Source of the DNA: a virus
Lineage: Duplodnaviria > Heunggongvirae > Uroviricota > Caudoviricetes
Strand: one strand, 5' to 3'
DNA: 64,000 bases
Virus record (IMG/VR): IMGVR_UViG_3300011242_000001
Coordinates: 50,439 to 114,438 of that record
The notes under the pieces are model-generated. The model saw nothing but the letters and a program-made list of their open reading frames with translations, ran no database searches and was not told where the DNA came from. Position numbers and translations under genes: made by a program. Position 1 is the stretch's first letter. The number at the start of each line of letters is the position of its first letter. Below, one piece after another: positions 2,285-25,494 of the stretch.

Positions 2285-2305
2285 AAAAAGGACCTCGAGG
2301 TCCTT

Positions 2306-5711: not shown

Positions 5712-5888
5712 GATAATTGCCTTATGATTTACGAATTTTTGATACGTCTAACTTTTTAATTTTTTCAAGATGATCTGATGCATTAATTGCATCTAAAAGA
5801 TTATTTGCATTTCGATTGCTACGATTAATCGCTTGCTTTAAAATAATTGGACCAGTCCCAATCGCTTGCATCATATTATATGTACTAT

Positions 5889-8465: not shown

Positions 8466-8480
8466 ATAATTTACTCACTT

Positions 8481-8924: not shown

Positions 8925-8982
8925 GTGTTTTTTCCTGGCCAAATATAATAATATATATAAGCAATTATATCGGAGATACATA

Positions 8983-9555: not shown

Positions 9556-9904
9556 TTATGGCAAAGGATATAGCACTGTTGATATAGAAGTTTATGAAAA
9601 AGAACTTACTATTAAAAGTGATGAATACGGTTATTTCTTACAATTTTATAAAGGCGACGAATTCTTAAACATTCTTGAACTTATAGAAATTAACTTTGCT
9701 AAGAATGAATGGGATCAACATACAGAGACTTATTTTAAACATGAATTAGAAGCTTTTAAGATAGATTTTGATATAAATGTACCACATCATGCATATACTA
9801 TTCAAAGTCTTGCAGATGAAGATCATCGGTTATGTGTATCATTGAATGAATGGAATGAATTTTTAGCTACTTTATATACAATTCGTGAAGATTTATTCAG
9901 ATAA
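9539..9904 (+). CDS. hypothetical protein
   Basis: ATG with GGAAGG RBS; 121 aa. Confidence 0.4.
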   Translation: MIHKYSYGKGYSTVDIEVYEKELTIKSDEYGYFLQFYKGDEFLNILELIEINFAKNEWDQHTETYFKHELEAFKIDFDINVPHHAYTIQSLADEDHRLCVSLNEWNEFLATLYTIREDLFR

Positions 9905-9972
9905 TATATGTACTTATGTATGTACATTTGTTATAATGTATATACATTATAACAAAACACAAAGGTGTTAAA

Positions 9973-10308
9973 ATGACAGACTATCCTGAAGGAACAACCC
10001 ATAAAAATCCATGGTTAAATCGTTACGGTTCAACTTGTTTTGACTGGTTTAAGATTGATCAGGAAACTGGAGAAGTTTTCCAATGGTATATTCCGTATAT
10101 GGAACATCAATATCGATGGGCCCCACCTTTATCACAAATGGTTAGTCGCGAAACATGGCACAAGACTTTAATTCCAGTTGACCAGGAATGTAAATTGGAA
10201 CCAAAGCCTTGGCATAAAGCGTCATATTTAGCTGGTGGTATATCTAAAGCTTATGACCGACCAGAAAACCCTTATTACCCTAACAGTACAGGATATCAAG
10301 GAGATTAA
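9973..10308 (+). CDS. hypothetical protein (Trp/Pro-rich)
   Basis: 111-aa ORF; AAAGGTG RBS. Confidence 0.45.
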   Translation: MTDYPEGTTHKNPWLNRYGSTCFDWFKIDQETGEVFQWYIPYMEHQYRWAPPLSQMVSRETWHKTLIPVDQECKLEPKPWHKASYLAGGISKAYDRPENPYYPNSTGYQGD

Positions 10309-10685
10309 ATTTTCTTTTTCTTCTTTTTTGGTTTACTGAAATTAATTGATACTTCATTATCTTCAGTGGTGATAGTAAGTTTTTTAGATTTATCACTTTC
10401 ATAATAAATGGTACCTTCAGACGTTATATCTAATTTATTAGCTAGTGCTTGAAGGGCCGTTTTTATAATATTTTTATGACCTAAACCAGTTACTGACATT
10501 CTATTAATATAAAAAATATTTTCAACATTTGGATGTGTGCTATATGTTTGTATAGTTACACCGCGCTGTTCTAAAAAAATAAAAATATCTTCTAAATCAA
10601 TTATATCATATTCGCTTGATAAAAGTAATTCGTCATTACTTGCAAAATAAGTAGTTGGCCCTTTTAAGAAATTTGTATATCCCAT
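10305..10685 (-). CDS. hypothetical protein with Lys-rich C-terminus and possible HhH-like GLGHK motif
   Basis: 126-aa ORF. Confidence 0.45.
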   Translation of the reverse strand: MGYTNFLKGPTTYFASNDELLLSSEYDIIDLEDIFIFLEQRGVTIQTYSTHPNVENIFYINRMSVTGLGHKNIIKTALQALANKLDITSEGTIYYESDKSKKLTITTEDNEVSINFSKPKKKKKKI

Positions 10686-10687
10686 TA

Positions 10688-10987
10688 TTATTCCTCGATG
10701 TTCAAAATATCTATTAATAGAATCTTTTCATATATACTATGCTTTTCTATTGGAAATATACAAATATATTTTTCATTTTTATAATTTGTATAAATACCTT
10801 CACTAAATGATTCAAATAATTCTTTTGTAATTTGTAGATGTTCAAACTTTTGATTTAATTCCCAATCATTAAATTTGAGCATACTAGCCCAATGTAAATT
10901 TAATGATTTAAAATAATCTGATGATTCAATTAATGCAATATCGGTATTTATTTCTTCATACGAAATAATATAAAGTACGTATTCCAT
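10688..10987 (-). CDS. hypothetical protein
   Basis: 99-aa ORF adjacent to the previous gene. Confidence 0.4.
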   Translation of the reverse strand: MEYVLYIISYEEINTDIALIESSDYFKSLNLHWASMLKFNDWELNQKFEHLQITKELFESFSEGIYTNYKNEKYICIFPIEKHSIYEKILLIDILNIEE

Positions 10988-11049
10988 TCATTTGCCTCGA
11001 CTACTTATATATTCTATTATTTATTCATTAAATGTATGTGCCTAAAATA

Positions 11050-11082
11050 GCTGTACAAACAAATATAAAAATATATAATTCG
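11050..11082 (+). promoter_or_regulatory. promoter-like TGTACA...AAATATAAAAATATATAAT upstream of polB part B
   Basis: TGTACA -35-like element and TATAAT -10-like element; member of a recurring motif. Confidence 0.3.
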
Positions 11083-11104: not shown

Positions 11105-12352
11105 ATGAATACTCAAATTTCAGATTTGAAATTTCAAATAACACAGCTGCAGCAATCTATTAAAGATTTAGATGATGAGTGTGAACGATATTCAGCAATG
11201 GAACAAGCCGTAAAGATTGTTTTAAACGGTGGATATGGAGCATTAGGGGCAGCTGCATTTAGATGGTATGACGAAACAATTGCGGAAGGTATTACTGCAA
11301 CCGGCCGTGTCGGAATACAATATATTACTAAAAAAATTAATGAATTTGTAAATGAGAAAGCCGGAACAGCCGGCATCGACTATGTTGTAAGTTCTGATAC
11401 AGATTCAGTTTATTTTGAAGTTGACGCAATTGTAAAACATAGATGGCCCGAAGTTACCGATAAACAGCAAATTACTGATTTAGTAAATGAATTTGCTGAA
11501 AATGAAGCTGGACCATATATTGATCAATGCTATAAAGATCTTTCCGATTATCTAAATTGCGACGTAAATTTATTAGATATGAAGCGCGAAGCAATTGCTG
11601 ATACATTTATTATCAGGGCCAAGAAAAATTATATCATGCGAGTATTTGATAATGAAGGAATTCGTTATGCTGATCCGTATTATAAAATGATGGGTATTGA
11701 AGTTGTTCGTACATCTCACCCACAAATGATTCGTGACGCTTTAGAGGATACTTTAAAGATGGTAATTGAAGGATCAGTTGAACAAGTTCGATCATATGTA
11801 AAAGAATTTAAAGCAAAGTTTATGAATTCGCCATTAAATCAGATTGCTGCACCCCGCGGTATTTCCGATATTACAAAATATATGAATAGCGAAGATTATT
11901 CAATTAAAGAATTTGAATATGTTACTAATGAATTTGGTAATAAAGTTAAATCTAAAATTACTATTCCAATTCATGTAAGAGCTGCTATTAATTATAATTA
12001 CCTAGTTAATAAATATAAGTTATCAAATAAATTTGAATTTATTAAAAACGGTTCTAAAATTAAATTTTTGCCATTAAAAGAGCCGAATCCAATTAAGAGC
12101 CATGTAATTGGATTCATTGATAATATTCCAACTGAATTTGGTTTAGATGAGTTTATTGATAAAGAAGCTCATTTTAATAAAATGTTCATTAGTCCGCTAG
12201 AAACTTTCTTAATTTATAATGGATGGACAATCCAGGAAAATACCTTATTAGATATGTTCGGATCATCCGATATTGATATGGCGACAGCTGCAATTAATAC
12301 AAAGAAAAAGACAATAAAAAAAGTCGATAAAAAGACAACTTCATTGTTTTAA
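11105..12352 (+). CDS. 43: family-B DNA polymerase, C-terminal fragment (gp43 part B: fingers motif B, palm motif C, thumb)
   Basis: KIVLNGGYGALG (motif B, KxxxNSxYG) and VVSSDTDSVYFEV (motif C, DTDS) align to T4 gp43 INSLYGALGN...YGDTDSIYVS; GGAG RBS before ATG; N-terminal 40 aa heptad-like (QISDLKFQITQLQQSIKDLDDE). Confidence 0.85.
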   Translation: MNTQISDLKFQITQLQQSIKDLDDECERYSAMEQAVKIVLNGGYGALGAAAFRWYDETIAEGITATGRVGIQYITKKINEFVNEKAGTAGIDYVVSSDTDSVYFEVDAIVKHRWPEVTDKQQITDLVNEFAENEAGPYIDQCYKDLSDYLNCDVNLLDMKREAIADTFIIRAKKNYIMRVFDNEGIRYADPYYKMMGIEVVRTSHPQMIRDALEDTLKMVIEGSVEQVRSYVKEFKAKFMNSPLNQIAAPRGISDITKYMNSEDYSIKEFEYVTNEFGNKVKSKITIPIHVRAAINYNYLVNKYKLSNKFEFIKNGSKIKFLPLKEPNPIKSHVIGFIDNIPTEFGLDEFIDKEAHFNKMFISPLETFLIYNGWTIQENTLLDMFGSSDIDMATAAINTKKKTIKKVDKKTTSLF

Positions 12353-12356
12353 AAAA

Positions 12357-12378
12357 AGGTCTTCGGACCTTTTTTTAA
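12357..12378 (+). terminator. rho-independent terminator
   Basis: AGGTCTTCGGACCT hairpin followed by TTTTTTT. Confidence 0.6.
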
Positions 12379-12465
12379 TGTATACACTTAGTTTTATTGT
12401 ACAAATATAAAAAATAATAGTAAAATATGTTCATTGGATTAGTTCAATATAATTGATTATACATA

Positions 12466-12500
12466 TATGTACAAATATAAATTTTAATATGCCTATAATA
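12466..12500 (+). promoter_or_regulatory. promoter-like ATGTACAAATATAAATTTTAAT...TATAAT upstream of uvsX
   Basis: Nearly identical to GTGTACAAATATAAAATTTTAT at 18559-18581; TATAAT downstream. Confidence 0.3.
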
Positions 12501-12561
12501 AAAGCAAGCGTGTAACGATTATAAATAGATGTTTAATTTATAATTCGGAGCATATATAATT

Positions 12562-13644
12562 ATGTCATTATTGGCAAAGTTAAAGAAAAATTCAACTATT
12601 AAAATGTCAAACTCAATGGCCGACTCTAAATTCTTTAATGAAAAAGATGCAGTTACCACTGATTTGCCATTATTAAATCTTGCATTATCTGGTTCTATTC
12701 ATGGTGGTTTAAGCTCTGGCTTAACTGTTGTTGCAGCTCCAAGTAAACACTTTAAATCAAATATTTCGCTATTTATGGTAGCGGCGTATATGAAAAAATA
12801 CCCTGAATCAGTATGTTTATTTTACGATTCAGAATTTGGTTCACCACCTGATTACTTACATTCATTTGATATTGATCTTGACCGCGTATTACATACACCT
12901 GTTGCTACTGTTGAAGAATTACGTTCAGACTTAACAGTTCAGCTTGATAACATTGAACGTGGTAAAGATAAAGTCGTAATTTTTATTGACTCTATTGGTA
13001 ACTTGGCATCTAAAAAAGAAACCCAAGATGCATTAGATGGTAAAGAAAAAGCGGATATGACTCGTGCTAAAACGATTAAATCATTATTCCGTATTGCTAC
13101 ACCACAATTTATTTTGAAAGACATTCCATGTATCGTAATTAACCATACGATTGAAACAATGGAAATGTTCTCTAAAACAGTTATGACTGGTGGTACTGGT
13201 ATTTTGTATTCTGCAAATACAGTTCTATTTGTGACTAAAGCACAAGAAAAAGATGGTACTGATCTTGCTGGATTTAAGTTTACCTTGGTAGCTGAAAAAT
13301 CACGTGCTGTTAAAGAACGTTCTAAATTCCCTCTTATTGTTACTTTCGAAAAAGGTATTAATAAGTATTCTGGTATGCTTGAATTGGCATCTGATTTAGA
13401 CTTTATCAGAAAACCAAAAATGGGATGGTATTCTCGTGTAATTGACGGCGTACAAGAAGAAAAATTGTGGCGTGCTAAAGATACAAGCACAACAGAATTC
13501 TGGAATCCTATTTTCAACGATCCAGCATTTGATGATGCATGTAAAGCAAAATATCGTTTATCTTCAGGCGCGAAAGTTACCGAAGATAGTATCGAAGAAG
13601 AATATGAATCCGATCTCGATTATGTCGATGATATGGACTATTAA
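12562..13644 (+). CDS. uvsX: UvsX RecA-like recombinase
   Basis: Near-colinear match to T4 UvsX (SKFFNEKD, GGLSSGL, FYDSEFG, DSIGNLASKKETQDAL, MTRAKT.KSLFRI, WRAKDT); GGAG RBS. Confidence 0.9.
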   Translation: MSLLAKLKKNSTIKMSNSMADSKFFNEKDAVTTDLPLLNLALSGSIHGGLSSGLTVVAAPSKHFKSNISLFMVAAYMKKYPESVCLFYDSEFGSPPDYLHSFDIDLDRVLHTPVATVEELRSDLTVQLDNIERGKDKVVIFIDSIGNLASKKETQDALDGKEKADMTRAKTIKSLFRIATPQFILKDIPCIVINHTIETMEMFSKTVMTGGTGILYSANTVLFVTKAQEKDGTDLAGFKFTLVAEKSRAVKERSKFPLIVTFEKGINKYSGMLELASDLDFIRKPKMGWYSRVIDGVQEEKLWRAKDTSTTEFWNPIFNDPAFDDACKAKYRLSSGAKVTEDSIEEEYESDLDYVDDMDY

Positions 13645-13645
13645 T

Positions 13646-13676
13646 AAAAAGGACTCTTAATTGAGTCCTTTTTATT
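13646..13676 (+). terminator. rho-independent terminator
   Basis: GGACTC-ttaatt-GAGTCC hairpin plus T-run. Confidence 0.6.
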
Positions 13677-13737
13677 TGTATGTACAATAATTAAATCTTA
13701 CGGCATAATATTTTTATTATATATAGGAATAGCGACT

Positions 13738-14181
13738 ATGAGCGAGCAATTTACAATACAATCAGTTGCACTTACTTCTAATACAAATATTGAAAACCTA
13801 TGTCTTGTCGGTTTTTTAGGCGATCTAGATTTATCAATTGAATACGTGTCGTCTTCTTATATTCATGAGAAAATTAATAAAACATTTTTAATTTTAGATG
13901 AATGCGAGGATTATATCCATAAGTTATTAGATAATAAAAACCGCTATTTTGAATTAAAATATATTTTAACACCTGATGAATTAAAGCTAATATTTAATGA
14001 TCAGATTGATATTTATGAAAGCGGTGAAATTGATAATATTAATGTCAATCAAATTAAAGAAGTTGAACAATTACGTTATATTTTATGGCGTAACGATAAA
14101 AGACATCAATTTAATAGTAAAAATGAACTTATTGGTTATTTGATTGATTATATTGAGTTAGATATTTTTATTAAAGAATAA
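13738..14181 (+). CDS. hypothetical protein
   Basis: 147-aa ORF; AGGAAT RBS. Confidence 0.45.
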   Translation: MSEQFTIQSVALTSNTNIENLCLVGFLGDLDLSIEYVSSSYIHEKINKTFLILDECEDYIHKLLDNKNRYFELKYILTPDELKLIFNDQIDIYESGEIDNINVNQIKEVEQLRYILWRNDKRHQFNSKNELIGYLIDYIELDIFIKE

Positions 14182-14204
14182 TAATCTTTAAATATAATAT
14201 AAAA

Positions 14205-14228
14205 GGATACATTCGTGTATCCTTTTTA
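14205..14228 (+). terminator. rho-independent terminator
   Basis: GGATACA-ttcg-TGTATCC hairpin plus TTTTT. Confidence 0.55.
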
Positions 14229-14258
14229 ATAACAATAAATAAAGCCTGGAGAATTATT

Positions 14259-14645
14259 GTGTCATTTGTAGAATTTTTAAAAAATGAAACTGAACTTATT
14301 AATGAGAGTTGTAAAGTAAAAATTACTGATGAATTAAAAGCATTGGTAACTAAAGAATTACATAATGGATATTTTGGAGCCGAACATCGTCATCTTATTA
14401 AAATTAAAAAAGTTGACGATAGTAAATATTATGCATTAGTCGGCCATCATGTTGATGAGCATCAAGTTAGTTTGTCAAATATAGAAGGCTTAAAAGTCGG
14501 CGACGAAATTTATGAAATATTCGAATTTGATGGTATCGAAGAACATAATATAAGAGCAGTCGATATTATACCTGGTGAAGATGATTCTGGTATCTATACT
14601 AGTAAAACAAAAGCGTTAGAATATTTTAACTCATTAAAAAGTTAA
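14259..14645 (+). CDS. hypothetical protein, GTG start, weak CTS-like N-terminus (MSFVEFLKNE)
   Basis: GGAG RBS 8 nt before GTG; 128 aa. Confidence 0.45.
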   Translation: MSFVEFLKNETELINESCKVKITDELKALVTKELHNGYFGAEHRHLIKIKKVDDSKYYALVGHHVDEHQVSLSNIEGLKVGDEIYEIFEFDGIEEHNIRAVDIIPGEDDSGIYTSKTKALEYFNSLKS

Positions 14646-14672
14646 AAAAAGGACCACACGGTCCTTTTTAAA
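14646..14672. terminator. bidirectional rho-independent terminator (GGACC-acac-GGTCC)
   Basis: Hairpin flanked by A-run and T-run between convergent genes. Confidence 0.6.
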
Positions 14673-14682
14673 TTCTTATATT

Positions 14683-14922
14683 TTATGCAATGATATGGAA
14701 ATCAAAGTGAATACCAAGTGATACTGCTTCAGTGCCAATCGCAACTGGGATAAAACGACCATAATGATTTTTATTATTGCAGTTATCTTCGTCTAATTTT
14801 ACCACGATATAAGAAATATCAACTTGACCATATTTTTTTAAAAACGCGGCACTTGCATTTTCGTATGAAGCATAAGTTTTAGTAGTTGAACATGTATCTA
14901 ATTTACGTAAGGTTGCAGCCAT
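14683..14922 (-). CDS. hypothetical protein
   Basis: 79-aa ORF. Confidence 0.4.
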   Translation of the reverse strand: MAATLRKLDTCSTTKTYASYENASAAFLKKYGQVDISYIVVKLDEDNCNNKNHYGRFIPVAIGTEAVSLGIHFDFHIIA

Positions 14923-15009
14923 GATATTTACTCCATCGAGTCAGTATGTTTATTTGATAAAATCATTATACCACAAAAATTTTATTTGTGTATACGTTTT
15001 TTTAAATTA

Positions 15010-15321
15010 TTATCGAATATAAATTTCGCCATTTAAATGTTTAACAAGAGATAAACAATCTTTTTCGCTAGATACAGTAGGATCTAAGCTTACTAGATTT
15101 TTTACAACGCCAGTTGATTTTTCAACAGTTAATTCTATATAACGAGTATTAATTAATACGTCATGGTCGTTAGTTGTGGCTAATACTGTAATACGACGTT
15201 GACTTCCATCATTAAGAGTCCAATATTCACCATTATCAAGCATTGAAACTACAGTTGAAATTACTAAATTTTCCATATTTTTACTCCAGCAAGTATATTT
15301 GATATGGACATCATACCGCAA
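15010..15321 (-). CDS. hypothetical protein
   Basis: 103-aa ORF. Confidence 0.45.
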   Translation of the reverse strand: MRYDVHIKYTCWSKNMENLVISTVVSMLDNGEYWTLNDGSQRRITVLATTNDHDVLINTRYIELTVEKSTGVVKNLVSLDPTVSSEKDCLSLVKHLNGEIYIR

Positions 15322-15437
15322 TAATTTAATTGTGTATACGTTTTTAATAACTCAAAATAAAATCATATATGTATATACAAATATATGCGTACATAATATA
15401 ATGACGATAACTTAAATGATCCATATGGATAAACTCA

Positions 15438-15713
15438 ATGAAAGACACCGTTTTAATTTTTAAAATTGACGATACTATCTATCACGTAGAGATTCCTGCT
15501 ATGTATAATGATAGAGCTATTCCTGCGAATGTCATAAATCAATTTGACGCTGCAATTTTAGAAGATAAAATTAATAAAGGTCATTTTGTTGATATCCATA
15601 AAATTGAATATGCGTATCGAGTGAACCGTACAAAGCAAATTATGTATAAAGACTTTGATCGTGCAATTCAATTTAAATCATCTGATGTAAAAGAATTTTT
15701 ATCAAAATTATAA
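15438..15713 (+). CDS. hypothetical protein
   Basis: 91-aa ORF. Confidence 0.4.
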   Translation: MKDTVLIFKIDDTIYHVEIPAMYNDRAIPANVINQFDAAILEDKINKGHFVDIHKIEYAYRVNRTKQIMYKDFDRAIQFKSSDVKEFLSKL

Positions 15714-15721
15714 GGTACTAT

Positions 15722-16081
15722 ATGAAAACAGTAAAATTTTTAATTAATGGTAATCTATTTGGATTTGCCACAGATAGTAATGATGAATGGCAACATATAG
15801 TTTGTACGCAGATTGTGCAAATGTGTGAATTTGTATCTATTGGCGATGATATTATTAAATGCCGTTATCCTAATAAATATACAGTACATGCAGATATTAA
15901 TGAACAATATAATCAAGGTCATTTTACGCAATTACCGGTTAATGTATTAAAGCCTTCGAGATTTGATTCTTTAATATATGATAATTTAACTGGCTTCCCT
16001 GAAAGAAATAATCATTTGATGGGATATGATCACATTCGTAATATTTTTGATTTACTCATTAAAAAAGATATTCTTGTTTAA
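15722..16081 (+). CDS. hypothetical protein
   Basis: 119-aa ORF; AAGGT RBS. Confidence 0.45.
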   Translation: MKTVKFLINGNLFGFATDSNDEWQHIVCTQIVQMCEFVSIGDDIIKCRYPNKYTVHADINEQYNQGHFTQLPVNVLKPSRFDSLIYDNLTGFPERNNHLMGYDHIRNIFDLLIKKDILV

Positions 16082-16083
16082 TA

Positions 16084-16108
16084 AAAAAGGACCTTAAGGT
16101 CCTTTTTT
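16084..16108. terminator. bidirectional rho-independent terminator (GGACC-ttaa-GGTCC)
   Basis: Hairpin with flanking A/T runs between convergent genes. Confidence 0.6.
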
Positions 16109-16121
16109 AATTTTAAAACTA

Positions 16122-16556
16122 TTAACACAAAGCACGTAACACTTTGAGCTGTGATGCTAAGATACGTGGAGCACCATCACCTAACTGGATCGATTTAGCG
16201 GTTGCAATTGTTGATACAAACACTAAAGCACCATTGGATGCGGCATCATAAATACCGAGTGAAACCACTGTTCCCCAGTTACCAGTTGGGACTGGAAAGA
16301 TTAATTCAGCTGTATTGTTATATTCCTGGTTAGTACCGGTTGGTCCAGTCCAAGTACCAGCAACGCGAGGCAACTCTACACGTGAATATCCTGTACCTGA
16401 CGCCGAAACCTCTACGCCGCCAGTACCATTTAGGTTAGGTGTTGTAGTAAATAACGCAAGCCATAAGCTTGATGGCATTGAAGGCATCGCGACACCTTTT
16501 AAAAGGTAGTCGAGGAAATTCTGTGAGGTTGTATAAGAGAGCGTACTAGAAGGCAT
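16122..16556 (-). CDS. hypothetical Gly/Thr/Pro-rich protein in a locally GC-rich segment
   Basis: 144-aa ORF; the segment reads clearly GC-richer than its flanks by eye; beta-rich, fibre-like composition. Confidence 0.45.
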   Translation of the reverse strand: MPSSTLSYTTSQNFLDYLLKGVAMPSMPSSLWLALFTTTPNLNGTGGVEVSASGTGYSRVELPRVAGTWTGPTGTNQEYNNTAELIFPVPTGNWGTVVSLGIYDAASNGALVFVSTIATAKSIQLGDGAPRILASQLKVLRALC

Positions 16557-16675
16557 GTATAATTCCTCAATTTGATTTTTTATAATTATATTTATGCAAC
16601 TTATTTATGTACTTTTAATTATATTTGCTTTAATATAAGTATGTTTTGTAACCTTCTAAAATTGGTATTTAAATC

Positions 16676-16858
16676 ATGCATAATAAATTTGCTGACGCCG
16701 CTAAAGCTAAATCTGAATTGCCACGTAAAGAATGTATTCCTTATATTACAAAAGATGATACATCTATTAAATATGATTGGTTCACACAAGAAGAATTTCA
16801 AAAAACTGGATATATCCAGGTTAATTTATCAGGTTTTGCCGATCATAAAGATGAATAA
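16676..16858 (+). CDS. small hypothetical protein
   Basis: 60-aa ORF. Confidence 0.3.
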   Translation: MHNKFADAAKAKSELPRKECIPYITKDDTSIKYDWFTQEEFQKTGYIQVNLSGFADHKDE

Positions 16859-16867
16859 GGACTATAA

Positions 16868-17098
16868 ATGATAAAATGTTTATTAAAATCTCTAGCGTGG
16901 CGCATTTTAGATAAAGAATTGCGTCAACATTATATTCAGCGATCACACTTCAATGAATATACTAAATGGATGAGTCGAGATTTTCCTATCATGGAAGATA
17001 TGTTTGAACATTTTAAAGATGAGCCATATGGACAAGCTCGTCGCATTGATGTTCATAGAGAAGAAATGAAAGAAAAATATTTTCCTAAAGAAAAATAA
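16868..17098 (+). CDS. small hypothetical protein
   Basis: 76-aa ORF followed by a hairpin terminator. Confidence 0.35.
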   Translation: MIKCLLKSLAWRILDKELRQHYIQRSHFNEYTKWMSRDFPIMEDMFEHFKDEPYGQARRIDVHREEMKEKYFPKEK

Positions 17099-17118
17099 TT
17101 AGGAAATATTTTATTAAA

Positions 17119-17145
17119 AGGTCTATTTATAGACCTTTTATTTTT
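17119..17145 (+). terminator. rho-independent terminator
   Basis: AGGTCTAT-ttat-AGACCT hairpin plus T-run. Confidence 0.55.
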
Positions 17146-17210
17146 ACCAATATAATTGTACATACAAATTTATATATGGTATTATTACTTTACTTTAGAT
17201 ATGAGCCTAT

Positions 17211-18236
17211 ATGATGAATATTTTAAATTTATCGGCTAAAGATATTTTAGCGATTAAAATATTTTCTGAAATGTTCACCGGAACAGAAGATGAAAATAAA
17301 AAAACATATCGTATGCTTTTAAAAAAATGGCATCCAGATATGAATAGTACGGATACAAGCGATGTATTTGTACATATTACACAATTGTATGATAGCTTAT
17401 CTATTAATATAATTCCGAAATCTGTAGAGATTAACGGCAAGTCATATGATTATATATATGATGTTGTAAAAGATTTATATACAATTTACTATACTGATAA
17501 TGGTACAGGATTTTTAATTAAGTTCAATCAAAAAGCAGATGGACTTAAACAAAATTATAAATCTAATTTAACTAAGCTTCAATCTTTATTGAAAAATCAT
17601 AAATTTGAAGATCGTTATAAAGATTTGTTATCTTGTAATATTTATGAAAATAAAGAATTTGCAAAAATCAGAGTACCTGCAGGTTATGTTCCTTTAAACC
17701 TGGCTTTAAAATATATTATATCTTTTAAAGATTGGAAAATTTCAGCATACATTATTTCGCGTTTATATGATACAGCGTTATTGTATAAAAATGCAGGTCT
17801 ATCATGTATCGGATTTGATCCTGATTTTATCTTTTTAGATACTAAAAAACATCAAATTATTGATTTATCAGCATTATTTTTCTCTACTGAGAGCAATAAA
17901 TCTTTAAGTCTTGCACTTACTCCAATGCAAGCATCCGCATTTATTAAAGATGACCTACAAAATAAAAAGTGTAGTGATGATTCTATTAATAGTATGATTA
18001 ATTCATTAGGCTTAATGTTATCAGGTGATTTAAATCGATTTGGTAATATTAATGTATTAGATGATTCTGCAAATAAAGAAATGGTTAAAATTATTAGTGG
18101 TATTGGTATTAATGTTCCAATTCGCAATAATTATGAAGCATGGCAAACTAAACTAGTACAACGTATTTTTAATGAAAGATCTTTTTATAAAAAAGAAATT
18201 GTATTTGGTGATTTAACAAAATATATTGGTAATTAA
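17211..18236 (+). CDS. J-domain (DnaJ-like) protein
   Basis: N-terminal segment KKTYRMLLKKWHPDMN...QLYDSL matches the J-domain helix II/III with an invariant HPD tripeptide; 341 aa. Confidence 0.6.
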   Translation: MMNILNLSAKDILAIKIFSEMFTGTEDENKKTYRMLLKKWHPDMNSTDTSDVFVHITQLYDSLSINIIPKSVEINGKSYDYIYDVVKDLYTIYYTDNGTGFLIKFNQKADGLKQNYKSNLTKLQSLLKNHKFEDRYKDLLSCNIYENKEFAKIRVPAGYVPLNLALKYIISFKDWKISAYIISRLYDTALLYKNAGLSCIGFDPDFIFLDTKKHQIIDLSALFFSTESNKSLSLALTPMQASAFIKDDLQNKKCSDDSINSMINSLGLMLSGDLNRFGNINVLDDSANKEMVKIISGIGINVPIRNNYEAWQTKLVQRIFNERSFYKKEIVFGDLTKYIGN

Positions 18237-18237
18237 T

Positions 18238-18552
18238 ATGAATATTCAAATTGATGAAATTATTAAAGCATTAAATTATATCTCTGAAAGTACACGGGAT
18301 ATTAAAGCTTTTAACTTTAATAAATTTATTTCAATTTATCAACGACCAACAATTATGCCTCGGGAAGGTGTACTAGTTGGGCAATATGAAAAATGGTGTT
18401 ATAAAAAGATTTATTTTTTATCATGCTTCGGCGTTAACATTCAGCTGTTTTCATATTGGGAAGATGAGGTTGTATTTACTGAACAACATGCGAATGATAT
18501 TTTAAATCATATCCGCAACACGCTTGAAGAAATTAAACACATTTATTTTTAA
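18238..18552 (+). CDS. hypothetical protein
   Basis: ATG overlapping the upstream stop; the track ORF from 18226 uses a TTG. Confidence 0.4.
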   Translation: MNIQIDEIIKALNYISESTRDIKAFNFNKFISIYQRPTIMPREGVLVGQYEKWCYKKIYFLSCFGVNIQLFSYWEDEVVFTEQHANDILNHIRNTLEEIKHIYF

Positions 18553-18558
18553 AATCGC

Positions 18559-18600
18559 GTGTACAAATATAAAATTTTATAGCATTATATTTGTACATAC
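18559..18600 (+). promoter_or_regulatory. promoter-like motif upstream of the vWA gene
   Basis: GTGTACAAATATAAAATTTTAT...TTGTACATAC. Confidence 0.3.
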
Positions 18601-18630
18601 TTTAAAACAAACGTTACGAGGAGTAACAAT

Positions 18631-19551
18631 ATGGGTGGTTCATCTTTTAATTATGATGATTGGCAACAGTCTTCAGCAACGACTAAAACACAATCGATTA
18701 ATCAAATTTATAGCTCATCTCTACAAGATGATGTAAATCCACTATTAATTAAAAATGGTGTACGTGAATCATGTGATAGCGATGCTAATCCTAATTCAAC
18801 GCCTATTATTATTGGTCTTGATGCAACTGGTAGTATGCAAACTATTCCAGAATACATGATCAAAACCGGCCTGGGTGAAATGTTTAAATCTATTTATGAA
18901 CGTCAACCAGTAACAGACCCACAAGTTTTATTCTGTACAATCGGGGACGTAATTGCAGGCGATCCTGCACCATTGCAAGTCGGCCAATTTGAATCTCAAT
19001 GTGATCTTCTCATTGATGGACTAAAAAAATTCTGGCTTGACGGTTGTTGGGGTGGTGGTAATGATAAAGAAAGCTATGACCTACCATATTATTTTGCAAT
19101 TAACAAAACCCGTACTGACGCATTAATTAAACGCGGCAAAAAAGGTTATCTAATTACTATTGGTGATGAGCCACCTCCACAATTATTAAAACGCGAACAT
19201 ATTGATAAAGTATTTGGCGGTCGAGCTGAAGGCGACTTTACATTTGAACAATTAGTGACACAGGTCCGTCGTTCATATATTCCAATTCATATTGTAATTG
19301 AACAAGGTAGTCATGTTCAATCATATGGATTAGATCATGTATATAGCCCATGGAAACGCTTATTGGGTGAAGATGCGATCGTTTGTAGCGATTATACTAA
19401 ATTGGCCGAAATTATTACTAGTATTTTACAAGTAAAAGCTGGTATTAATACTAACGATGTAATTAATAGTTGGGATGGTAGCACTTCAGTTGCTGTTGCT
19501 AAAGCAATTGGTTCGCTTACAACAACACAAGATACAAGCGTTGTATTTTAA
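18631..19551 (+). CDS. von Willebrand factor A (vWA)-like domain protein
   Basis: IIIGLDATGSM (MIDAS DxTGS), downstream TIGD and ITIGDE motifs; GAGGAG RBS; 306 aa. Confidence 0.5.
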   Translation: MGGSSFNYDDWQQSSATTKTQSINQIYSSSLQDDVNPLLIKNGVRESCDSDANPNSTPIIIGLDATGSMQTIPEYMIKTGLGEMFKSIYERQPVTDPQVLFCTIGDVIAGDPAPLQVGQFESQCDLLIDGLKKFWLDGCWGGGNDKESYDLPYYFAINKTRTDALIKRGKKGYLITIGDEPPPQLLKREHIDKVFGGRAEGDFTFEQLVTQVRRSYIPIHIVIEQGSHVQSYGLDHVYSPWKRLLGEDAIVCSDYTKLAEIITSILQVKAGINTNDVINSWDGSTSVAVAKAIGSLTTTQDTSVVF

Positions 19552-19614
19552 TAATTGAAGGTTGGATGCTGTAATAAATATTATTATGGCATCCAATATT
19601 AAGTGGTATAATAA

Positions 19615-19911
19615 ATGATTACACAATTCTTTAGATATAGAAAAATATTTGTTACATTAGGGACAGAACGCTTTTGTATTATTATTCCATTTTATGAAAA
19701 TAATACATATCTTGCAATGGATCCAACTGGTCAAATTTTTACCTATGATTCACTCCCTGTATTCGATAAATCAGTAAATCAATATATAATTGATGAAAAG
19801 GAACATTCATATGATTTAGTTGCTACCTATAATGGTGACGCATCTAAATTTGTAAATAATATTATTGCAATTGCAGACAAGCAATACGAATATAATTTTG
19901 TGGAAACCTAA
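19615..19911 (+). CDS. hypothetical protein, paralog of 20386..20682
   Basis: 98 aa; shares the LAMDPTGQIFTYDSLP / VAMNKNGDIFMYDSQP block with the paralog. Confidence 0.45.
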   Translation: MITQFFRYRKIFVTLGTERFCIIIPFYENNTYLAMDPTGQIFTYDSLPVFDKSVNQYIIDEKEHSYDLVATYNGDASKFVNNIIAIADKQYEYNFVET

Positions 19912-19913
19912 TT

Positions 19914-20276
19914 ATGAGACTAGAACTGGAATCCGTTATTAATACCGATCAATTTATTGGTAAAAAAGTTTATGTTTGCGCTTATCAAGAGCCAGACTTA
20001 CATAGTCGTCGTGCCGTACAAAATGTACATGTGACAGAATGTATTGTTGCACCAATGGATGAATATTTACAAAACGCATCCACCAAAAAAACTATTTATC
20101 ATAGTAAAAACGCCTTATTAAAGTTAACAAAAACTAGGCGGGTCATTTATAATAATCCAGTTCAGCCATATGCATATAATGCATCATATCATACATGGAC
20201 CAAAACAGGCGGCATCAATATATTTGATGATTTAGATGAATGTAAAGAACATTATATTTCTTTACTAAAAAGTTAA
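19914..20276 (+). CDS. hypothetical protein
   Basis: 120-aa ORF. Confidence 0.45.
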   Translation: MRLELESVINTDQFIGKKVYVCAYQEPDLHSRRAVQNVHVTECIVAPMDEYLQNASTKKTIYHSKNALLKLTKTRRVIYNNPVQPYAYNASYHTWTKTGGINIFDDLDECKEHYISLLKS

Positions 20277-20292
20277 ATTCAATTATAAAAAA

Positions 20293-20314
20293 GAGGCTTT
20301 AAGCCTCTTTTTTA
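20293..20314 (+). terminator. rho-independent terminator
   Basis: GAGGCTTTAAGCCTC hairpin plus TTTTTT. Confidence 0.6.
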
Positions 20315-20385
20315 TTTAAATGTATATACATTAGTAATAAACTTATCTATAATAAAATGTATATACATATTAAGAAGAGATAAAA

Positions 20386-20682
20386 ATGATTAAATCTACT
20401 TATAAGCACACGTTAACTCTTATTGTGGGTGACGAAGAATTAGAAATAAATATTCCTAATTTTGAATATCCATATTTTGTGGCCATGAATAAAAATGGTG
20501 ATATTTTTATGTATGATTCACAACCGGCTCGAGCTGGCTACGATCATAATCCACTTAACTGTAAGCGATATATGCATATTGCAAGCGCGATTGAGGTCGA
20601 TACACAATCATATATCGATCATTGTATTGAAGTTGATATGTTTGATACAATTGTTGATTTTAATAGTGGTACATCTCGATAA
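20386..20682 (+). CDS. hypothetical protein, paralog of 19615..19911
   Basis: 98 aa; AAGAAGAGA RBS. Confidence 0.45.
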   Translation: MIKSTYKHTLTLIVGDEELEINIPNFEYPYFVAMNKNGDIFMYDSQPARAGYDHNPLNCKRYMHIASAIEVDTQSYIDHCIEVDMFDTIVDFNSGTSR

Positions 20683-20747
20683 TTGTATATACAAATGAAA
20701 TATTTACTGTTATAATAAGTTATTAATTAATCTAAATGAGATAACAT

Positions 20748-21941
20748 ATGAACGTTGTTGTAATCGGCGCCAACTATGGTGATGAAGGTAAAGGTCGTAC
20801 TGTTGATTTTCTTGCCAAAGACTTTTGTGGGCTTGAAAATCGACCTACTCTGAATGTAAGATTTTCTGGTTCAAATAATGCAGCACATACCGTATGGCAT
20901 AATAATACATCATTTGTATTTCATATGTTAGGGGCTGCTTCTTTTCGTGGGCATCCAACATATTTGAGTCAACATGTTGTTGTTGATTTTGTTGCACTAG
21001 AAACAGAAATTAATGAATTTGAAAAAATTACTGGATTTAAACCAGTCGTTTATGTCGATCCGCGGTGCCGTATTAATCTGCCATATGATGTAATGAAAAA
21101 CCGTATTAAAGAAATTCTTAAAGGTAATGATAAACACGGTTCAACTGGTAATGGTCTAAATGAAACTATTGACCGGCATCAACGTCTTCCAATTTTAGCA
21201 GGTACATTTGAATTTGCATTACCTATGTTAATTCTCACACAAAGTGATTTTCAGCAATTTGTTGAAACTGAGTTAAAGGATATTGAATTAGAATATCGAC
21301 ATAAAGACTTTATTGAATTTTTATGTGAGAAAAATTCAGTATCGTTTATTTTTGATAAAATTAGACATATCCTTAATAATCATCCTCAAATTGTATGCGA
21401 TACACCAAATCTTAAAATTTATAACTGTATCTTTGAAGGGAGTCAAGGGTTAGCTTTAGATGAATATAGCAAATTTTTTCCTCATGTAACTCGTACACGT
21501 ACTGGTACAACAAATGTAATAGATTTATGCCGTGAGCATGATATTGTAATTGACAATGTATATTATGTATCACGACCGTATTTCAGCCGTCATGGTGCAG
21601 ACAAATACTTTGAAGAATTTGATAGAATTAGTGACGTTTATAACATTGTAGATGAAACTAATATACCAAATGACTGGCAAGATAATTTAAAATTTGGTAT
21701 TTTAAATGTAACTGAAATGGATGAACGTATTAATGATGACTTTAAAATCATTAAAAATTTATTCCCAAATGTAAATAAGCAGCTGGTGTTTACTTGTATG
21801 GATCAATGTGGCGGTGGGTCTGGTATTTATATTCGTAACGGTCGACTATATCAAACAAGCGATCTAATAAATTCATTAAATTTATATTATAGATTTAGTG
21901 ATATTAAACCAATCTTTTTTGATAATAAGGAAAATATATAA
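20748..21941 (+). CDS. adenylosuccinate synthetase (PurA) family homolog; candidate PurZ-like enzyme
   Basis: N-terminal NVVVIGANYGDEGKGRTVDFL matches the PurA P-loop GDEGKGK; GSNNAAHTV matches GGHNAGHT; FEGSQGLALDE matches FEGAQGTLLD; the C-terminal region is divergent; 397 aa. Confidence 0.65.
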   Translation: MNVVVIGANYGDEGKGRTVDFLAKDFCGLENRPTLNVRFSGSNNAAHTVWHNNTSFVFHMLGAASFRGHPTYLSQHVVVDFVALETEINEFEKITGFKPVVYVDPRCRINLPYDVMKNRIKEILKGNDKHGSTGNGLNETIDRHQRLPILAGTFEFALPMLILTQSDFQQFVETELKDIELEYRHKDFIEFLCEKNSVSFIFDKIRHILNNHPQIVCDTPNLKIYNCIFEGSQGLALDEYSKFFPHVTRTRTGTTNVIDLCREHDIVIDNVYYVSRPYFSRHGADKYFEEFDRISDVYNIVDETNIPNDWQDNLKFGILNVTEMDERINDDFKIIKNLFPNVNKQLVFTCMDQCGGGSGIYIRNGRLYQTSDLINSLNLYYRFSDIKPIFFDNKENI

Positions 21942-22714
21942 TGTCATATGATATTATCAGTAAATGGCCACAAATGCTTGTGACCGGTCAAACTATTACT
22001 AATCGTGATACTATTATTGAAATTCTTTTATTAACAGATTCATTTTTAACAGATACATCCCAATATAGTGGTGGTAATAATCACGCATTTAATTTAATGT
22101 ATCGTACAAAAGCCGGCCTAGAATATGTAGGTAAATTTGAAAGATATATTAAAGAAAATAATATTACATTAAATGATGATTTTAAATATTTTTCATATGA
22201 GTTTGAAAAACTTTTAAAAGCTGAATTAGGTGTTATTGATAATGAATATGTATCTAATAGATGGGCGTCATCGTGTTTCATTTATGGTGCATATGGTTGG
22301 TGCTCACCTGAAGGGAAAATATTATATACAGATAATGTTGGTAAATGGCCTTCAACAGAAGAAATTGTTGAAGAATGGGAATTTATTGCAAAAAAATGGC
22401 CCTTCCTTAATATTAATGTTACCATTTTTGATGGTGAAAGTTGCGAAGATAATAAAAACGCATTATTTAATTTAGCTATTAAAGACGGTACTGTTGAAAT
22501 TAAAGCACCTGATACAAGTGTACATTGTCATTTAACAGATATGGATTCTAATTTTAATCAGATTAATCGATCATATTCTGAACGTAATGAACAAGGTATT
22601 CCAGATGATATGATTGATGAAATAGCATCAATTGTTAAAAATAAAGTTCATGAGGTATTAAAGAAAATTCCAGAAAAAGAGTTAGTCAAATATATGGAAT
22701 TAAATCCATTTTAA
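21941..22714 (+). CDS. hypothetical protein, translationally coupled to the PurA-like gene
   Basis: TAATG overlap; 257 aa. Confidence 0.5.
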   Translation: MSYDIISKWPQMLVTGQTITNRDTIIEILLLTDSFLTDTSQYSGGNNHAFNLMYRTKAGLEYVGKFERYIKENNITLNDDFKYFSYEFEKLLKAELGVIDNEYVSNRWASSCFIYGAYGWCSPEGKILYTDNVGKWPSTEEIVEEWEFIAKKWPFLNINVTIFDGESCEDNKNALFNLAIKDGTVEIKAPDTSVHCHLTDMDSNFNQINRSYSERNEQGIPDDMIDEIASIVKNKVHEVLKKIPEKELVKYMELNPF

Positions 22715-22719
22715 ATAAA

Positions 22720-22740
22720 GGACCTTAGGGTCCTTTTTAT
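22720..22740 (+). terminator. rho-independent terminator
   Basis: GGACC-ttag-GGTCC plus TTTTT. Confidence 0.6.
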
Positions 22741-22834
22741 ATTTGTGCACACCAAGTTTTTTACAAATATAAAAAGAAATATAATACAATACTTCATATT
22801 GTATACTTTTATATTTGTAGGAGATAATTAACGC

Positions 22835-24769
22835 ATGTTTTATACATCAGTTGTAAAAATGGGAAATAATATTATTCACCGTTATATCAAAGATGGAAAG
22901 CGTTATCAAGAAATTATTAAGAATTTTGATTATGATTTATATGTGCGAAGCGAATATTCGCGAGACGCTTTAGATGTACATAAAAACCATTTAAAACGTT
23001 ATAATTTTGACAATATTTATGATATGAGTCAATTTATTAATGAAAATGGTAATGACAATGTTTATGGTAATACTGATCCAGTAACACAATTTATAGCAAA
23101 AACATATCCTGATGAAATTAAATTAACTAATGATTATGTAGTTCTAAACTTCGATATTGAGACCGAACACGGCGAAGGCTTTATCAAATATAAAGACCCT
23201 CATATTATCCAGGTTCAAGAAGATAAAAATGAACCAATTAAAATGGCATTGGGTGAATTTAAAAAGATCGATCTAAATGTACATGAATATCATGTATATG
23301 ATGAAGAAAAAAAAGATTGGCTTCTTTATGAAAATTCATGTTATGCGCCGCAACAACTAGGATTCCCAGACCCAAATTTAGCTTTATACCAGGTAATGTC
23401 GGTATCATTAATTTCATCTTTAGAAAATATAATTTATGTATATGGTACTAAAGAATTTAAAGGTGCACGCACAATTGAAGGATCTGATTATACTATTCGT
23501 CATATTTATTGCGCAAATGAAAAAGAACTTTTAGTTAAATTTATTCAGAAATGGCGTGAAATTAAACCTGATATTTTAACTGGCTGGAATGTTGAAGGAT
23601 TCGACGTACCATATATTATTAATCGTATTGTGCGTGTACTTGGTAAAAAGTTTGCTAATATGCTTAGCCCATTTGCTAATGAATCACAAAACTGTATTCG
23701 CGAACGCCAAAAAGAAGATGCCGTTTATTATAGTATTTCAGGTATTACCATTTACGATTACCTGTCTGTATATAAAAAGTTCTCGCGTGAAAAACGTGAA
23801 AGCTATAAATTAGACTGGATTGGTAAAGTAGAAGTAGACCATCAAAAGATTTCATATGACGAATATGATAATTCACTAATGAAATTATGGGAATACGATT
23901 ATGATAAATTCATTCTATATAATGCTATCGATACATTAATTGTTAATAAGCTAGATAAGAAATTAAAGTTTATTAATCTTGCAATTACGATTGCTCATAT
24001 TACTAAATCAGATTTAAGTGATGCTTTAGGTACCATTAAAATTTGGGATAATATGATTTATAACTTACTACGTAAGCGCGATATTCAAATTCCACCAAAT
24101 ATCAAACAAGAAAAATCTAAAGAATTCTTGGGTGCATTTGTAAAAGAGCCATTACTTGGTCGACATGGTTGGACTTTAACATTCGATTTAACATCGCTAT
24201 ATCCAAGTATTATTCGTATGTTAGGTATGTCACCGGAAACACTTATTGATCGTGAAATTGGTAATGATTTCACTGCAAATAGTGCCGTGCGAAAAGTTAT
24301 TAAATCCAATATGGATATTGTTGCCAATATTATTATGGACGGTGAATTTGGCACAGATAATGAATTATCAGAAGATTTATATATTCTTAAACGATTTGAA
24401 TCAGCCGATGTTAATAAAATTAAATCATTAGATAAAAATACAATGATTTATGTTTTACAAGAATTACGTCGGGCAGATGAATATTATAATTCTGGTCATA
24501 ATCATATTCATGGTGTTAAAACAGTATTAGAAAATGTTGAAAACTTTATTAATATGGTGACCGATCTTTCTTGGGCTAAAGAAAAAAATGTCACTGTAGC
24601 AGGTAATGGTTCAACATATGATAAATCCACTGAAGGCGTAATTCCTGAAGCGATGACTCACTTATTCAATTACCGTAAACTACTTAAGAATAAGATGAAG
24701 GAAGAAAAGAAAAAATTACAGCTAAAAATTGAAGAGCTACATAAGTTAGAATCACAGCTAACATCTTAA
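22835..24769 (+). CDS. 43: family-B DNA polymerase, N-terminal fragment (gp43 part A: 3'-5' exonuclease domain and palm motif A)
   Basis: MFYTSVVKMGNNIIHRYI matches T4 MKEFYISIETVGNNIVERYI; FDIETE exo I; LTGWNVEGFDVPYIINRI matches LTGWNVESFAIPYVYNRI; GAFVKEPLLG...FDLTSLYPSIIR matches GAFVKEPIP...FDLTSLYPSIIR (motif A); ends with a coiled-coil-like tail KKKLQLKIEELHKLESQL; GGAG RBS. Confidence 0.85.
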   Translation: MFYTSVVKMGNNIIHRYIKDGKRYQEIIKNFDYDLYVRSEYSRDALDVHKNHLKRYNFDNIYDMSQFINENGNDNVYGNTDPVTQFIAKTYPDEIKLTNDYVVLNFDIETEHGEGFIKYKDPHIIQVQEDKNEPIKMALGEFKKIDLNVHEYHVYDEEKKDWLLYENSCYAPQQLGFPDPNLALYQVMSVSLISSLENIIYVYGTKEFKGARTIEGSDYTIRHIYCANEKELLVKFIQKWREIKPDILTGWNVEGFDVPYIINRIVRVLGKKFANMLSPFANESQNCIRERQKEDAVYYSISGITIYDYLSVYKKFSREKRESYKLDWIGKVEVDHQKISYDEYDNSLMKLWEYDYDKFILYNAIDTLIVNKLDKKLKFINLAITIAHITKSDLSDALGTIKIWDNMIYNLLRKRDIQIPPNIKQEKSKEFLGAFVKEPLLGRHGWTLTFDLTSLYPSIIRMLGMSPETLIDREIGNDFTANSAVRKVIKSNMDIVANIIMDGEFGTDNELSEDLYILKRFESADVNKIKSLDKNTMIYVLQELRRADEYYNSGHNHIHGVKTVLENVENFINMVTDLSWAKEKNVTVAGNGSTYDKSTEGVIPEAMTHLFNYRKLLKNKMKEEKKKLQLKIEELHKLESQLTS

Positions 24770-24774
24770 AAAAA

Positions 24775-24796
24775 GGACCGCAAGGTCCTTTTTTAT
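24775..24796 (+). terminator. rho-independent terminator
   Basis: GGACC-gcaa-GGTCC plus TTTTTT. Confidence 0.6.
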
Positions 24797-24855
24797 TGTA
24801 CTTACAATTATATACGCGATACAATTTATATAAATTAATGATAGAGATCATACAA

Positions 24856-25494
24856 ATGAATATTCCGCACGAAGTATATCAATTATTAGCAATTCTTAAA
24901 GAATATAATCCGCTATTGGTTGGCGGATGTGTGCGTGACTATTTAATGGGTAATGAGCCACATGATTATGATTTAGTTGTGCCACATGTACATCACCAAA
25001 TGCTGCTTGAAATAATTGAAGCTGGATGGCAAACTAAATTAACCGAAAATAATGACACAGAAATTTGGAATGTAACCAAAAAATTTCCGGTATATGATAC
25101 TATCTATTATAAAGGTTCACCTATCAATTATGTTAAAGGCGAAAAATCTTATGTAATTGAGTTGCTTTCATATAGAGGCGAAACATTAAGCGATGATGCA
25201 TCTAATCGCGACTTAACAGTTAATTCGTTATATTATGATTATTTTAATGATAAAATATTTGACCCGACTGGTCGTGGATTGGAAGATATTCAAAATAAAG
25301 TTGTTCGCTTTAATAATAAGCAAGTAGTGGAAAAAGATCCATTGCGTATTATGAGAGCATATCGTTTCGCTAAAAAATTTAATTTTACTATTGAAGATAA
25401 AAGCCTAAAACTATGTAGAAATGGATTTGATTCAATGATTAAAGAAATAAGCCCAACCAGAATACTTAAAGAAATTGAAAAACTTTGTCTATAA
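24856..25494 (+). CDS. class II CCA-adding / poly(A) polymerase-type nucleotidyltransferase, head+neck domains only
   Basis: LLVGGCVRDYLMGNEPHDYDLVV matches GGAVRDxLLG..xDxD; NRDLTVNSLYYD...FDPTGRGLEDI...DPLRIMRAYRFA matches RRDLTINALA...IDPxxGLxDL...EDPLRxLRxxRFA; no HD body domain; start taken at ATG rather than the track's TTG inside the terminator. Confidence 0.6.
   Translation: MNIPHEVYQLLAILKEYNPLLVGGCVRDYLMGNEPHDYDLVVPHVHHQMLLEIIEAGWQTKLTENNDTEIWNVTKKFPVYDTIYYKGSPINYVKGEKSYVIELLSYRGETLSDDASNRDLTVNSLYYDYFNDKIFDPTGRGLEDIQNKVVRFNNKQVVEKDPLRIMRAYRFAKKFNFTIEDKSLKLCRNGFDSMIKEISPTRILKEIEKLCL

Follow-up and report, generated by a model that had tools for sequence, protein, structure and literature searches.

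In several T4-like phages the family B replicative DNA polymerase gp43 is encoded not by one gene but by two cistrons, gp43A and gp43B, divided at the tip of the fingers domain. As summarized in PMC3061061 and PMC2677866 from the work of Petrov et al. (2006, 2010), this arrangement is found in Aeromonas phages 44RR, 31, 25, and 65 and in Acinetobacter phage 133. The cistrons are neighbors separated by 2 bp to 3 kb, with A before B, and in some cases a homing endonuclease gene lies in the gap; each has its own start and stop, no intein is involved, and the chains are held to assemble noncovalently. Here we describe a split polymerase in a 64,000-nucleotide stretch of an uncultivated T4-like phage (IMG/VR record IMGVR_UViG_3300011242_000001, positions 50,439 to 114,438; hereafter the window, numbered from its first nucleotide). 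It resembles the described phage enzymes in the fingertip break, the separate starts and stops, the lack of an intein, and the presumed noncovalent assembly, but it lacks their A-then-B adjacency: the gene for the C-terminal half (part B) comes first, 10.5 kb upstream of the gene for the N-terminal half (part A) on the same strand. The type of split is therefore known already, and what is new is the uncoupled, rearranged gene layout together with the tendency of this lineage to break its polymerase into three or more pieces. Overall, it is probable that the replicative PolB of this phage consists of two separately made chains that come together noncovalently, that the chain is cut at the loop of the fingers hairpin, and that the two genes were uncoupled later.

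Split family B polymerases are also described outside this group. As cited in PMC3061061, PolB1 and PolB2 of Methanothermobacter thermautotrophicus (Kelman et al. 1999) likewise form a two-subunit enzyme from distant genes (85 kb apart) without an intein, but the organism is archaeal and the chain is broken within the palm, some 83 residues past the fingertip position toward the C terminus. The same source cites Rhodothermus phage RM378, whose PolB is also a phage family B enzyme encoded in separate genes; its predicted break falls between the N-terminal/exonuclease part and the palm and not at the fingertip. Closer in the position of the break is the engineered "Pfu SQ" polymerase (Hansen et al., PMC3061061), which is split in the fingers hairpin and shows full activity once its separately made fragments are combined, although this is an artificial enzyme with short archaeal fingers that was cloned as a bicistronic construct. 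In Nanoarchaeum equitans, an example of "fractured genes" (PMC2677866), the PolB halves are unlinked in the genome, as in the clade of the window, but a split intein rejoins them, whereas the break described here has none. The gene-breaking model of Dassa et al. (PMC2677866) places a final stage of "genomic uncoupling" after loss of the endonuclease.

The window is AT-rich (29.7% GC), and relatives on 281-kb and 300-kb contigs suggest that the source is a jumbo T4-like phage. Both polymerase open reading frames (ORFs) were found, on the plus strand, at the coordinates given in a first-pass annotation of this DNA (Table 1). The reading frame of part B opens at an ATG at 11090 and closes at 12352; because an AGGAG Shine-Dalgarno sequence lies 6 nt before the ATG at 11105 and the homolog cluster P0121 begins there too, we take part B to start at 11105, as annotated, and to be 415 amino acids (aa) long. 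Part A, of 644 aa, matches residues 4 to 125, 190 to 431, and 455 to 504 of RB69 gp43 (E value, 2e-60), and part B matches residues 534 to 895 of T4 gp43 and 559 to 901 of RB69 gp43 (E value, 5e-49; both by phmmer against PDB sequences). Pfam assigns PF03104 to part A (E value, 1.3e-20) and divides PF00136 between the halves, with profile positions 22 to 91 in part A and 139 to 376 in part B. The unsplit 893-aa polymerase of Stenotrophomonas phage Moby is partitioned likewise, residues 1 to 471 and 489 to 522 aligning with part A and residues 548 to 892 with part B, with zero overlap. Since the RB69/T4, Pfam, and Moby mappings all tile without overlap, the two halves are complementary parts of one enzyme, in agreement with the original proposal of a split gp43-type polymerase. 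Searching the 64-kb window with tblastn revealed no PolB-like segment besides A and B, and thus no full-length polB, and among part B homologs (n = 97) both large relative contigs gave the split form only. No close cultured relative was found by tblastn among 50,697 phage records, identity being at most 40% for both halves, and the tail of part A plus its clade-specific insertion (see below) had no match.

Where the chain is broken can be read from alignment with RB69 gp43. R614 and K618 of part A correspond to R482 and K486, the deoxynucleoside triphosphate (dNTP)-phosphate ligands of the first fingers helix, and K37, N41, and Y44 of part B correspond to K560, N564, and Y567 of motif B. Part A ends 30 residues past R614, and part B starts 36 residues ahead of K37. 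Because the R614/K618 helix lies in part A and the K37 helix in part B, the break falls at the tip of the fingers hairpin and not just before the fingers, as the annotation had it.

The motifs quoted there for the two halves (DLTSLYPS, KIVLNGGYGALG, and DTDS) and both tail sequences are all present, and the catalytic residues are kept throughout the clade. In clade alignments that span 41 to 87% identity for both halves, exonuclease motifs I to III of part A (FDIE, with D107 and E109; D257; and YNAID, with Y362 and D366) are invariant, as is motif A (D451-L455-Y456-P457). In part B the invariant residues are K37/N41/Y44-G45 of motif B, D98-T99-D100 of motif C, and K173-K174-N175-Y176 (KKxY). 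The terminal SLF of part B is conserved, with F415 invariant, and this tail probably binds the sliding clamp. Codon comparison with a related strain (an independent IMG/VR contig of 95 to 97% nucleotide identity) gave 12 synonymous and no nonsynonymous differences over residues 1 to 228 of part A and 35 synonymous and 8 nonsynonymous differences in part B, indicating that both halves are under purifying selection. The ends created by the split are themselves shared: homolog searches found about 25 part A-type proteins of about 640 aa that have in common the ending LQxKIEELHxLE and about 15 part B-type proteins of 390 to 420 aa that begin with the matching helix. Conservation extends to the stop codon and terminator that follow part A and to the start codon of part B. 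Judged from these sequences, the split is old and maintained, and the two-subunit polymerase is real, conserved, and probably active.

The 10,482-bp gap between the halves contains uvsX, as the annotation stated, together with 17 more ORFs that are 75 aa or longer, where it had counted about 15. To see how common such a layout is, we classified 114 loci among IMG/VR relatives by polB arrangement. In 83 of them polB is one ORF, the remainder are adjacent where the contig allowed a call, and none has distant halves. The adjacent cistrons comprise both fingertip splits (loci L006, L011, and L071) and cuts just past motif A (L087 and L120 to L125). Given that the described T4-like splits are also close together, the suggestion that a distant, order-inverted arrangement is unusual is borne out. 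We found no report in the literature of a distant or order-swapped split gp43 in a T4-like phage, although many subscription papers lay outside our search and such an absence is not proof.

Within the clade, the distance between the halves varies (Table 1). One relative is collinear with the window, another has the halves 80 kb apart on opposite strands, and others have them on separate contigs or show no partner within 10 kb. Part B is followed by uvsX in every clade member seen, and in most IMG/VR relatives it is intact polB that lies directly upstream of uvsX; it is therefore most likely part A that moved. A divergently transcribed block that includes TelA lies upstream of part B in the window and in loci L003 and L142. 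A block consisting of a DnaJ-like gene, a gene for a 306-aa protein, an adenylosuccinate-synthetase-like gene, and part A is common to the window and JAWVHF010000011.1.

Two neighbors of part A may be mentioned here. The adenylosuccinate-synthetase-like gene (20748 to 21941, plus strand) lies close upstream, and this pairing is kept in JAWVHF010000011.1. Its PHROGs label is PurZ-like, but we rejected that identity: the PurZ score is 40 bits against a cutoff of 300, the PurA score is 97 against 402, and the best solved relatives are ordinary PurA. The product may be a divergent purine-pathway enzyme. Directly 3' of part A (24796 to 25494, plus strand) is a gene for a 232-aa homolog of the head domain of CCA-adding enzyme/poly(A) polymerase.

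A Shine-Dalgarno sequence, a start, a stop, and a terminator are present for each half separately, and promoter-like sites precede both (Table 1). One of these, TRTACAAATATAAA, is found at 12 sites in the window where 1.0 would be expected, for example at 12398, 12468, 18560, 22760, 37335, and 46635 on the plus strand and at 1847 and 6372 on the minus strand. Most copies are intergenic and lie 40 to 115 nt before start codons, including that of uvsX, and the motif is likely a phage promoter element. With a promoter-like site, a Shine-Dalgarno sequence, and a terminator for each, the halves look like independent monocistronic units. Both units possibly belong to one promoter class, in which case A and B might be coregulated.

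Structure predictions were made with AlphaFold2 for a direct, artificial end-to-end fusion of A and B, aligned with 50 unsplit homologs, and for part A alone, with the clade alignment. The fusion model has a predicted local distance difference test score (pLDDT) of 86.4 and a predicted template modeling (TM) score of 0.78, and Foldseek matches it to RB69 gp43 with target-normalized TM-scores of 0.78 to 0.87 and an E value of about 1e-60. It contains a symmetric fingers hairpin of 43 and 43 residues (helices 602 to 644 and 649 to 691; pLDDT 85 to 95 overall), with the junction of the two chains inside a 4-residue turn. The first helix extends to the final residue of part A (pLDDT 93 to 95), and the second has a pLDDT of 86 to 93. 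In the model of part A alone the N-terminal and exonuclease domains are kept, but pLDDT falls to 26 to 49 in the palm (residues 378 to 458) and to 61 to 76 in the tail helix. This loss of confidence fits mutual dependence of the halves, and it matches the behavior of Pfu SQ, in which folding of the C-fragment depends on the N-fragment. Between motif A and the palm beta-hairpin, RB69 has 24 residues and the window about 116; the extra sequence is a clade-specific insertion that is predicted, from the clade alignment, to form a helical subdomain (pLDDT 79 to 94).

These data suggest the following picture of the enzyme and its origin. The N-terminal domain and the proofreading exonuclease would come from part A, and the thumb and the putative clamp-binding tail from part B. 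The fingers and the palm would be shared, part A giving the first fingers helix and palm motif A and part B giving palm motif C and the second fingers helix, which bears motif B. The free arms, which are somewhat lengthened, heptad patterned, and oppositely charged, would pair as the usual antiparallel two-helix fingers, and the composite palm, with motif A in one chain and motif C in the other, would form the rest of the interface. As to the order of events, an adjacent fingertip split like that of Aeromonas phage 44RR would have come first, giving two autonomous cistrons, and a genome rearrangement would have followed, in which part B stayed upstream of uvsX and part A relocated.

The annotation had read the two tails as heptad-like sequences that reassemble the chains in the manner of a leucine zipper. 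The heptad pattern is there: LIVMF residues occupy 0.73 of the a and d positions in the part A tail and 0.75 in the part B head, which places them in the top 4% and top 1.4%, respectively, of 39-aa windows from all ORFs in the window, and their net charges are +5 and -3. The arms are also long. The spacing between the conserved arginine and lysine is 35 to 46 residues in 50 unsplit relatives (median 42.5, with one at 59), whereas the summed arms measure 52 to 72 residues in the split clade and 66 in the window, 10 to 25 residues more than in the nearest unsplit relatives. Adjacent fingertip-split relatives are long armed as well (51 to 62), and the tail consensus is strongly conserved. These features would suit a dedicated heterodimerization zipper, in antiparallel form, that evolved after the split and became the main driver of assembly. 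We give this reading serious weight but think it on balance the less probable one, since fingers longer still, with 77 residues separating R482 and K560, occur in RB69 and T4, whose polymerases are unsplit, so that the arms stay within the family range and length alone is not diagnostic of a split. Moreover, these helices are part of the fold and hold catalytic residues, the two halves meet over a large palm interface, and the engineered Pfu splits need no extension in order to assemble (PMC3061061). In our reading the tails are the native fingers helices, which carry the dNTP-binding residues and are predicted to be antiparallel, and are not an appended parallel coiled coil of the leucine-zipper kind. 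What stands of the zipper proposal is the added length of the arms relative to the nearest unsplit relatives and their opposite net charge, which make it plausible that the native hairpin was reinforced after the split.

The preferred reading of a noncovalent heterodimer has also to be set against explanations in which the halves are joined, are dead, or are not really apart. Covalent joining by a split intein, or trans-splicing at the RNA level, would draw on the fact that relatives of part B do bear inteins and split inteins (PF14890; VHN/S at the junction). These sit at motif C, a different site, and are readily recognized, whereas Pfam finds neither PF14890 nor any other intein domain in A or B, only PolB domains. 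Part A ends in ESQLTS and part B begins with MNTQ, both termini being helical and free of intein blocks, in line with the annotation's view that no intein flanks the break. Rfam found no intron or other RNA family in the window and a tRNA scan found no tRNA genes in its 64 kb, and with both scans empty an intron-based explanation was dropped; together with the separate expression signals of each ORF, this makes joining of either kind highly improbable. It is also improbable, though less so, that the ORFs are decaying remnants or independent proteins (part A, for example, a stand-alone exonuclease) in a phage replicated by another polymerase. In favor of this, an extra split minimal Pol III has been reported in jumbo T4-like phages of group 2.2 (PMC7824862), and the window covers 64 kb of a genome of likely 280 to 300 kb that could encode a second polymerase elsewhere. 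The invariance of all exonuclease and polymerase catalytic residues and the strong excess of synonymous changes speak against it, as does the retention of both halves in every relative in which both could be sought; neither half alone has a complete active site. The sequences are metagenomic, and the separation could in principle come from assembly or binning of a gene that is really contiguous. We consider this the remotest of the alternatives, since an independent IMG/VR contig of 95 to 97% DNA identity is collinear across the entire B-to-A region, separate ORFs with their own signals recur in contigs from NCBI, ENA, Logan, and IMG/VR, and the part A stop and terminator and the part B start are conserved. 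Besides the limited extent of the window, three further points weigh against the noncovalent heterodimer: the artificial covalent fusion and the alignment of unsplit homologs bias the model toward the canonical fold, the promoter calls are consensus matches, and what we say of assembly and activity of the A/B pair draws on conservation and precedent.

Fragmentation has gone further in some members of the lineage. In the Logan contig SRR19044726_1235 (locus L183) the polymerase is in three pieces, at 207 to 599 (minus strand), 1661 to 3136 (plus strand), and 3316 to 4521 (plus strand). Piece A1 (491 aa) ends in a loop of the clade-specific insertion. The palm beta-hairpin and the first fingers helix are in piece A2 (130 aa), which is encoded about 1 kb upstream of A1 on the other strand; a gene for an N6/N4 methyltransferase lies between A1 and A2. 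Part B follows directly after A1, and after it come NUDIX and then uvsX. The second break maps to a loop at about residues 501 to 522 of part A of the window. The three-piece form is rare, as the stand-alone A2 form was represented by two clusters only in the protein database searched. A metagenome scan with the part B alignment added only one further clade member, on a 3-kb contig. The uvsX gene of L183 is itself in two parts (5018 to 5944 and 8267 to 8791, with RecA_N and T4_UVSX_C domains), which are separated by about 2.3 kb containing small ORFs.

A different kind of break occurs in locus L142 (ENA SHEN23-1 scaffold_3, 281 kb), where part B is cut at motif C, DTD/S, by a split intein (VHN/S). 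The region comprises 8250 to 8957, 8929 to 10023, and 10001 to 11071, with a gene for a 364-aa protein between the pieces of part B, so that the layout is that of a "fractured gene." Among the remaining part B relatives, some (clusters P0129 to P0131) have a contiguous intein at the same motif C site. In four T4-like IMG/VR loci (L119, L126, L134, and L135) about 2.2 to 3 kb is inserted between the motif A and motif B regions of polB.

A broader hypothesis, which we advance tentatively and consider rather unlikely as a whole, is that this lineage reuses the protruding helical hairpins of PolB as break points. The fingertip would be broken in all members, its arms having been extended and matched in charge to form a specific antiparallel zipper, and the insertion would be broken in a sublineage to give three subunits, the 130-aa middle piece being encoded on the opposite strand, with independently expressed pieces scattering through a genome of about 300 kb. 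If true, this would provide a natural, evolvable multisubunit family B replicase and design rules for splitting polymerases, and nucleotide selectivity might be altered, as in the engineered Pfu fingertip split.

The fingertip split of T4-type polymerases was previously known only as neighboring cistrons and was taken as a snapshot of invasion by an insertion element. The clade described here would represent the next stage, in which autonomous genes drift apart (by 10 kb, by 80 kb, or onto opposite strands) under purifying selection. Purifying selection combined with separation implies that a core replicase can persist in the long term as a trans-assembled heterodimer with neither genomic linkage nor an intein, and the "genomic uncoupling" end point of the gene-breaking model would thus be borne out for an intein-less viral gene. 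The clade also offers natural sequence pairs for split-polymerase engineering, and it calls for caution in annotation and in surveys of polB diversity, as PolB ORFs of half length should not be taken for pseudogenes in such phages.

Table 1. Polymerase halves, expression signals, and neighboring features in the window, and positions of the halves in relatives
Feature	Sequence	Position	Strand	Description
Promoter-like site before part B	Window	11052..11079	+	TGTACA-16 nt-TATAAT, variant of TRTACAAATATAAA; consensus match
Part B (gp43B)	Window	11105..12352	+	Second fingers helix with motif B, motif C, KKNY (173-176), thumb, C-terminal SLF tail
Second fingers helix, coding region	Window	11117..11245	+	Part B residues 5-47, including heptad N-terminal arm
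Terminator-like hairpin right after part B stop	Window	12353..12376	+	AAAAAGGTC-TTCG-GACCTTTTTTT, then T run; read directly from the sequence, not listed by the hairpin scan
uvsX recombinase	Window	12562..13644	+	phrog_97, E value 1.8e-88
Terminator-like hairpin before part A	Window	22717..22736	+	Closes the preceding transcription unit; from the scan
Promoter-like motif before part A	Window	22760..22773	+	Copy of TRTACAAATATAAA, 62 nt ahead of the part A start codon
Part A (gp43A)	Window	22835..24769	+	N-terminal domain, 3'-5' exonuclease, palm motif A, clade-specific helical insertion, first fingers helix
Clade-specific insertion	Window	24260..24559	+	Part A residues 476-575, about 100 aa, between motif A and palm beta-hairpin
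First fingers helix, coding region	Window	24638..24766	+	Part A residues 602-644, with R614/K618 and heptad C-terminal arm
Intrinsic-terminator-like hairpin right after part A	Window	24769..24794	+	GGACC-GCAA-GGTCC, then T run
Parts B and A	IMGVR_UViG_3300008122_000018			Gap 10,082 bp; collinear with the window
Part B	JAWVHF010000011.1 (299,728 bp)	76,638-77,825	+	80 kb from part A, opposite strand
Part A	JAWVHF010000011.1 (299,728 bp)	158,168-160,063	-	80 kb from part B, opposite strand
Parts B and A	Sample 3300011947			Halves on separate contigs, 57.6 kb and 78 kb
Single halves	L139, L140/L141, L142 (four loci, three distinct contexts)			No partner within 10 kb

The window also carries accessory genes that are unusual for a T4-like phage, namely, those for a TelA-like protein (2803 to 4104, minus strand), which is kept upstream of part B in relatives, a flotillin/SPFH (Band 7) protein (31122 to 32903, plus strand), and a DUF4419 protein (39703 to 40668, plus strand). 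Farther along are replication and nucleotide genes at 48569 to 49189, 52702 to 54060, 56678 to 60203, 61158 to 62273, and 62539 to 63804, which encode a DprA-like protein, an ATP-dependent DNA ligase, topoisomerase II (two subunits), a dCMP-deaminase-domain protein, and a Pif1/Dda-like helicase.

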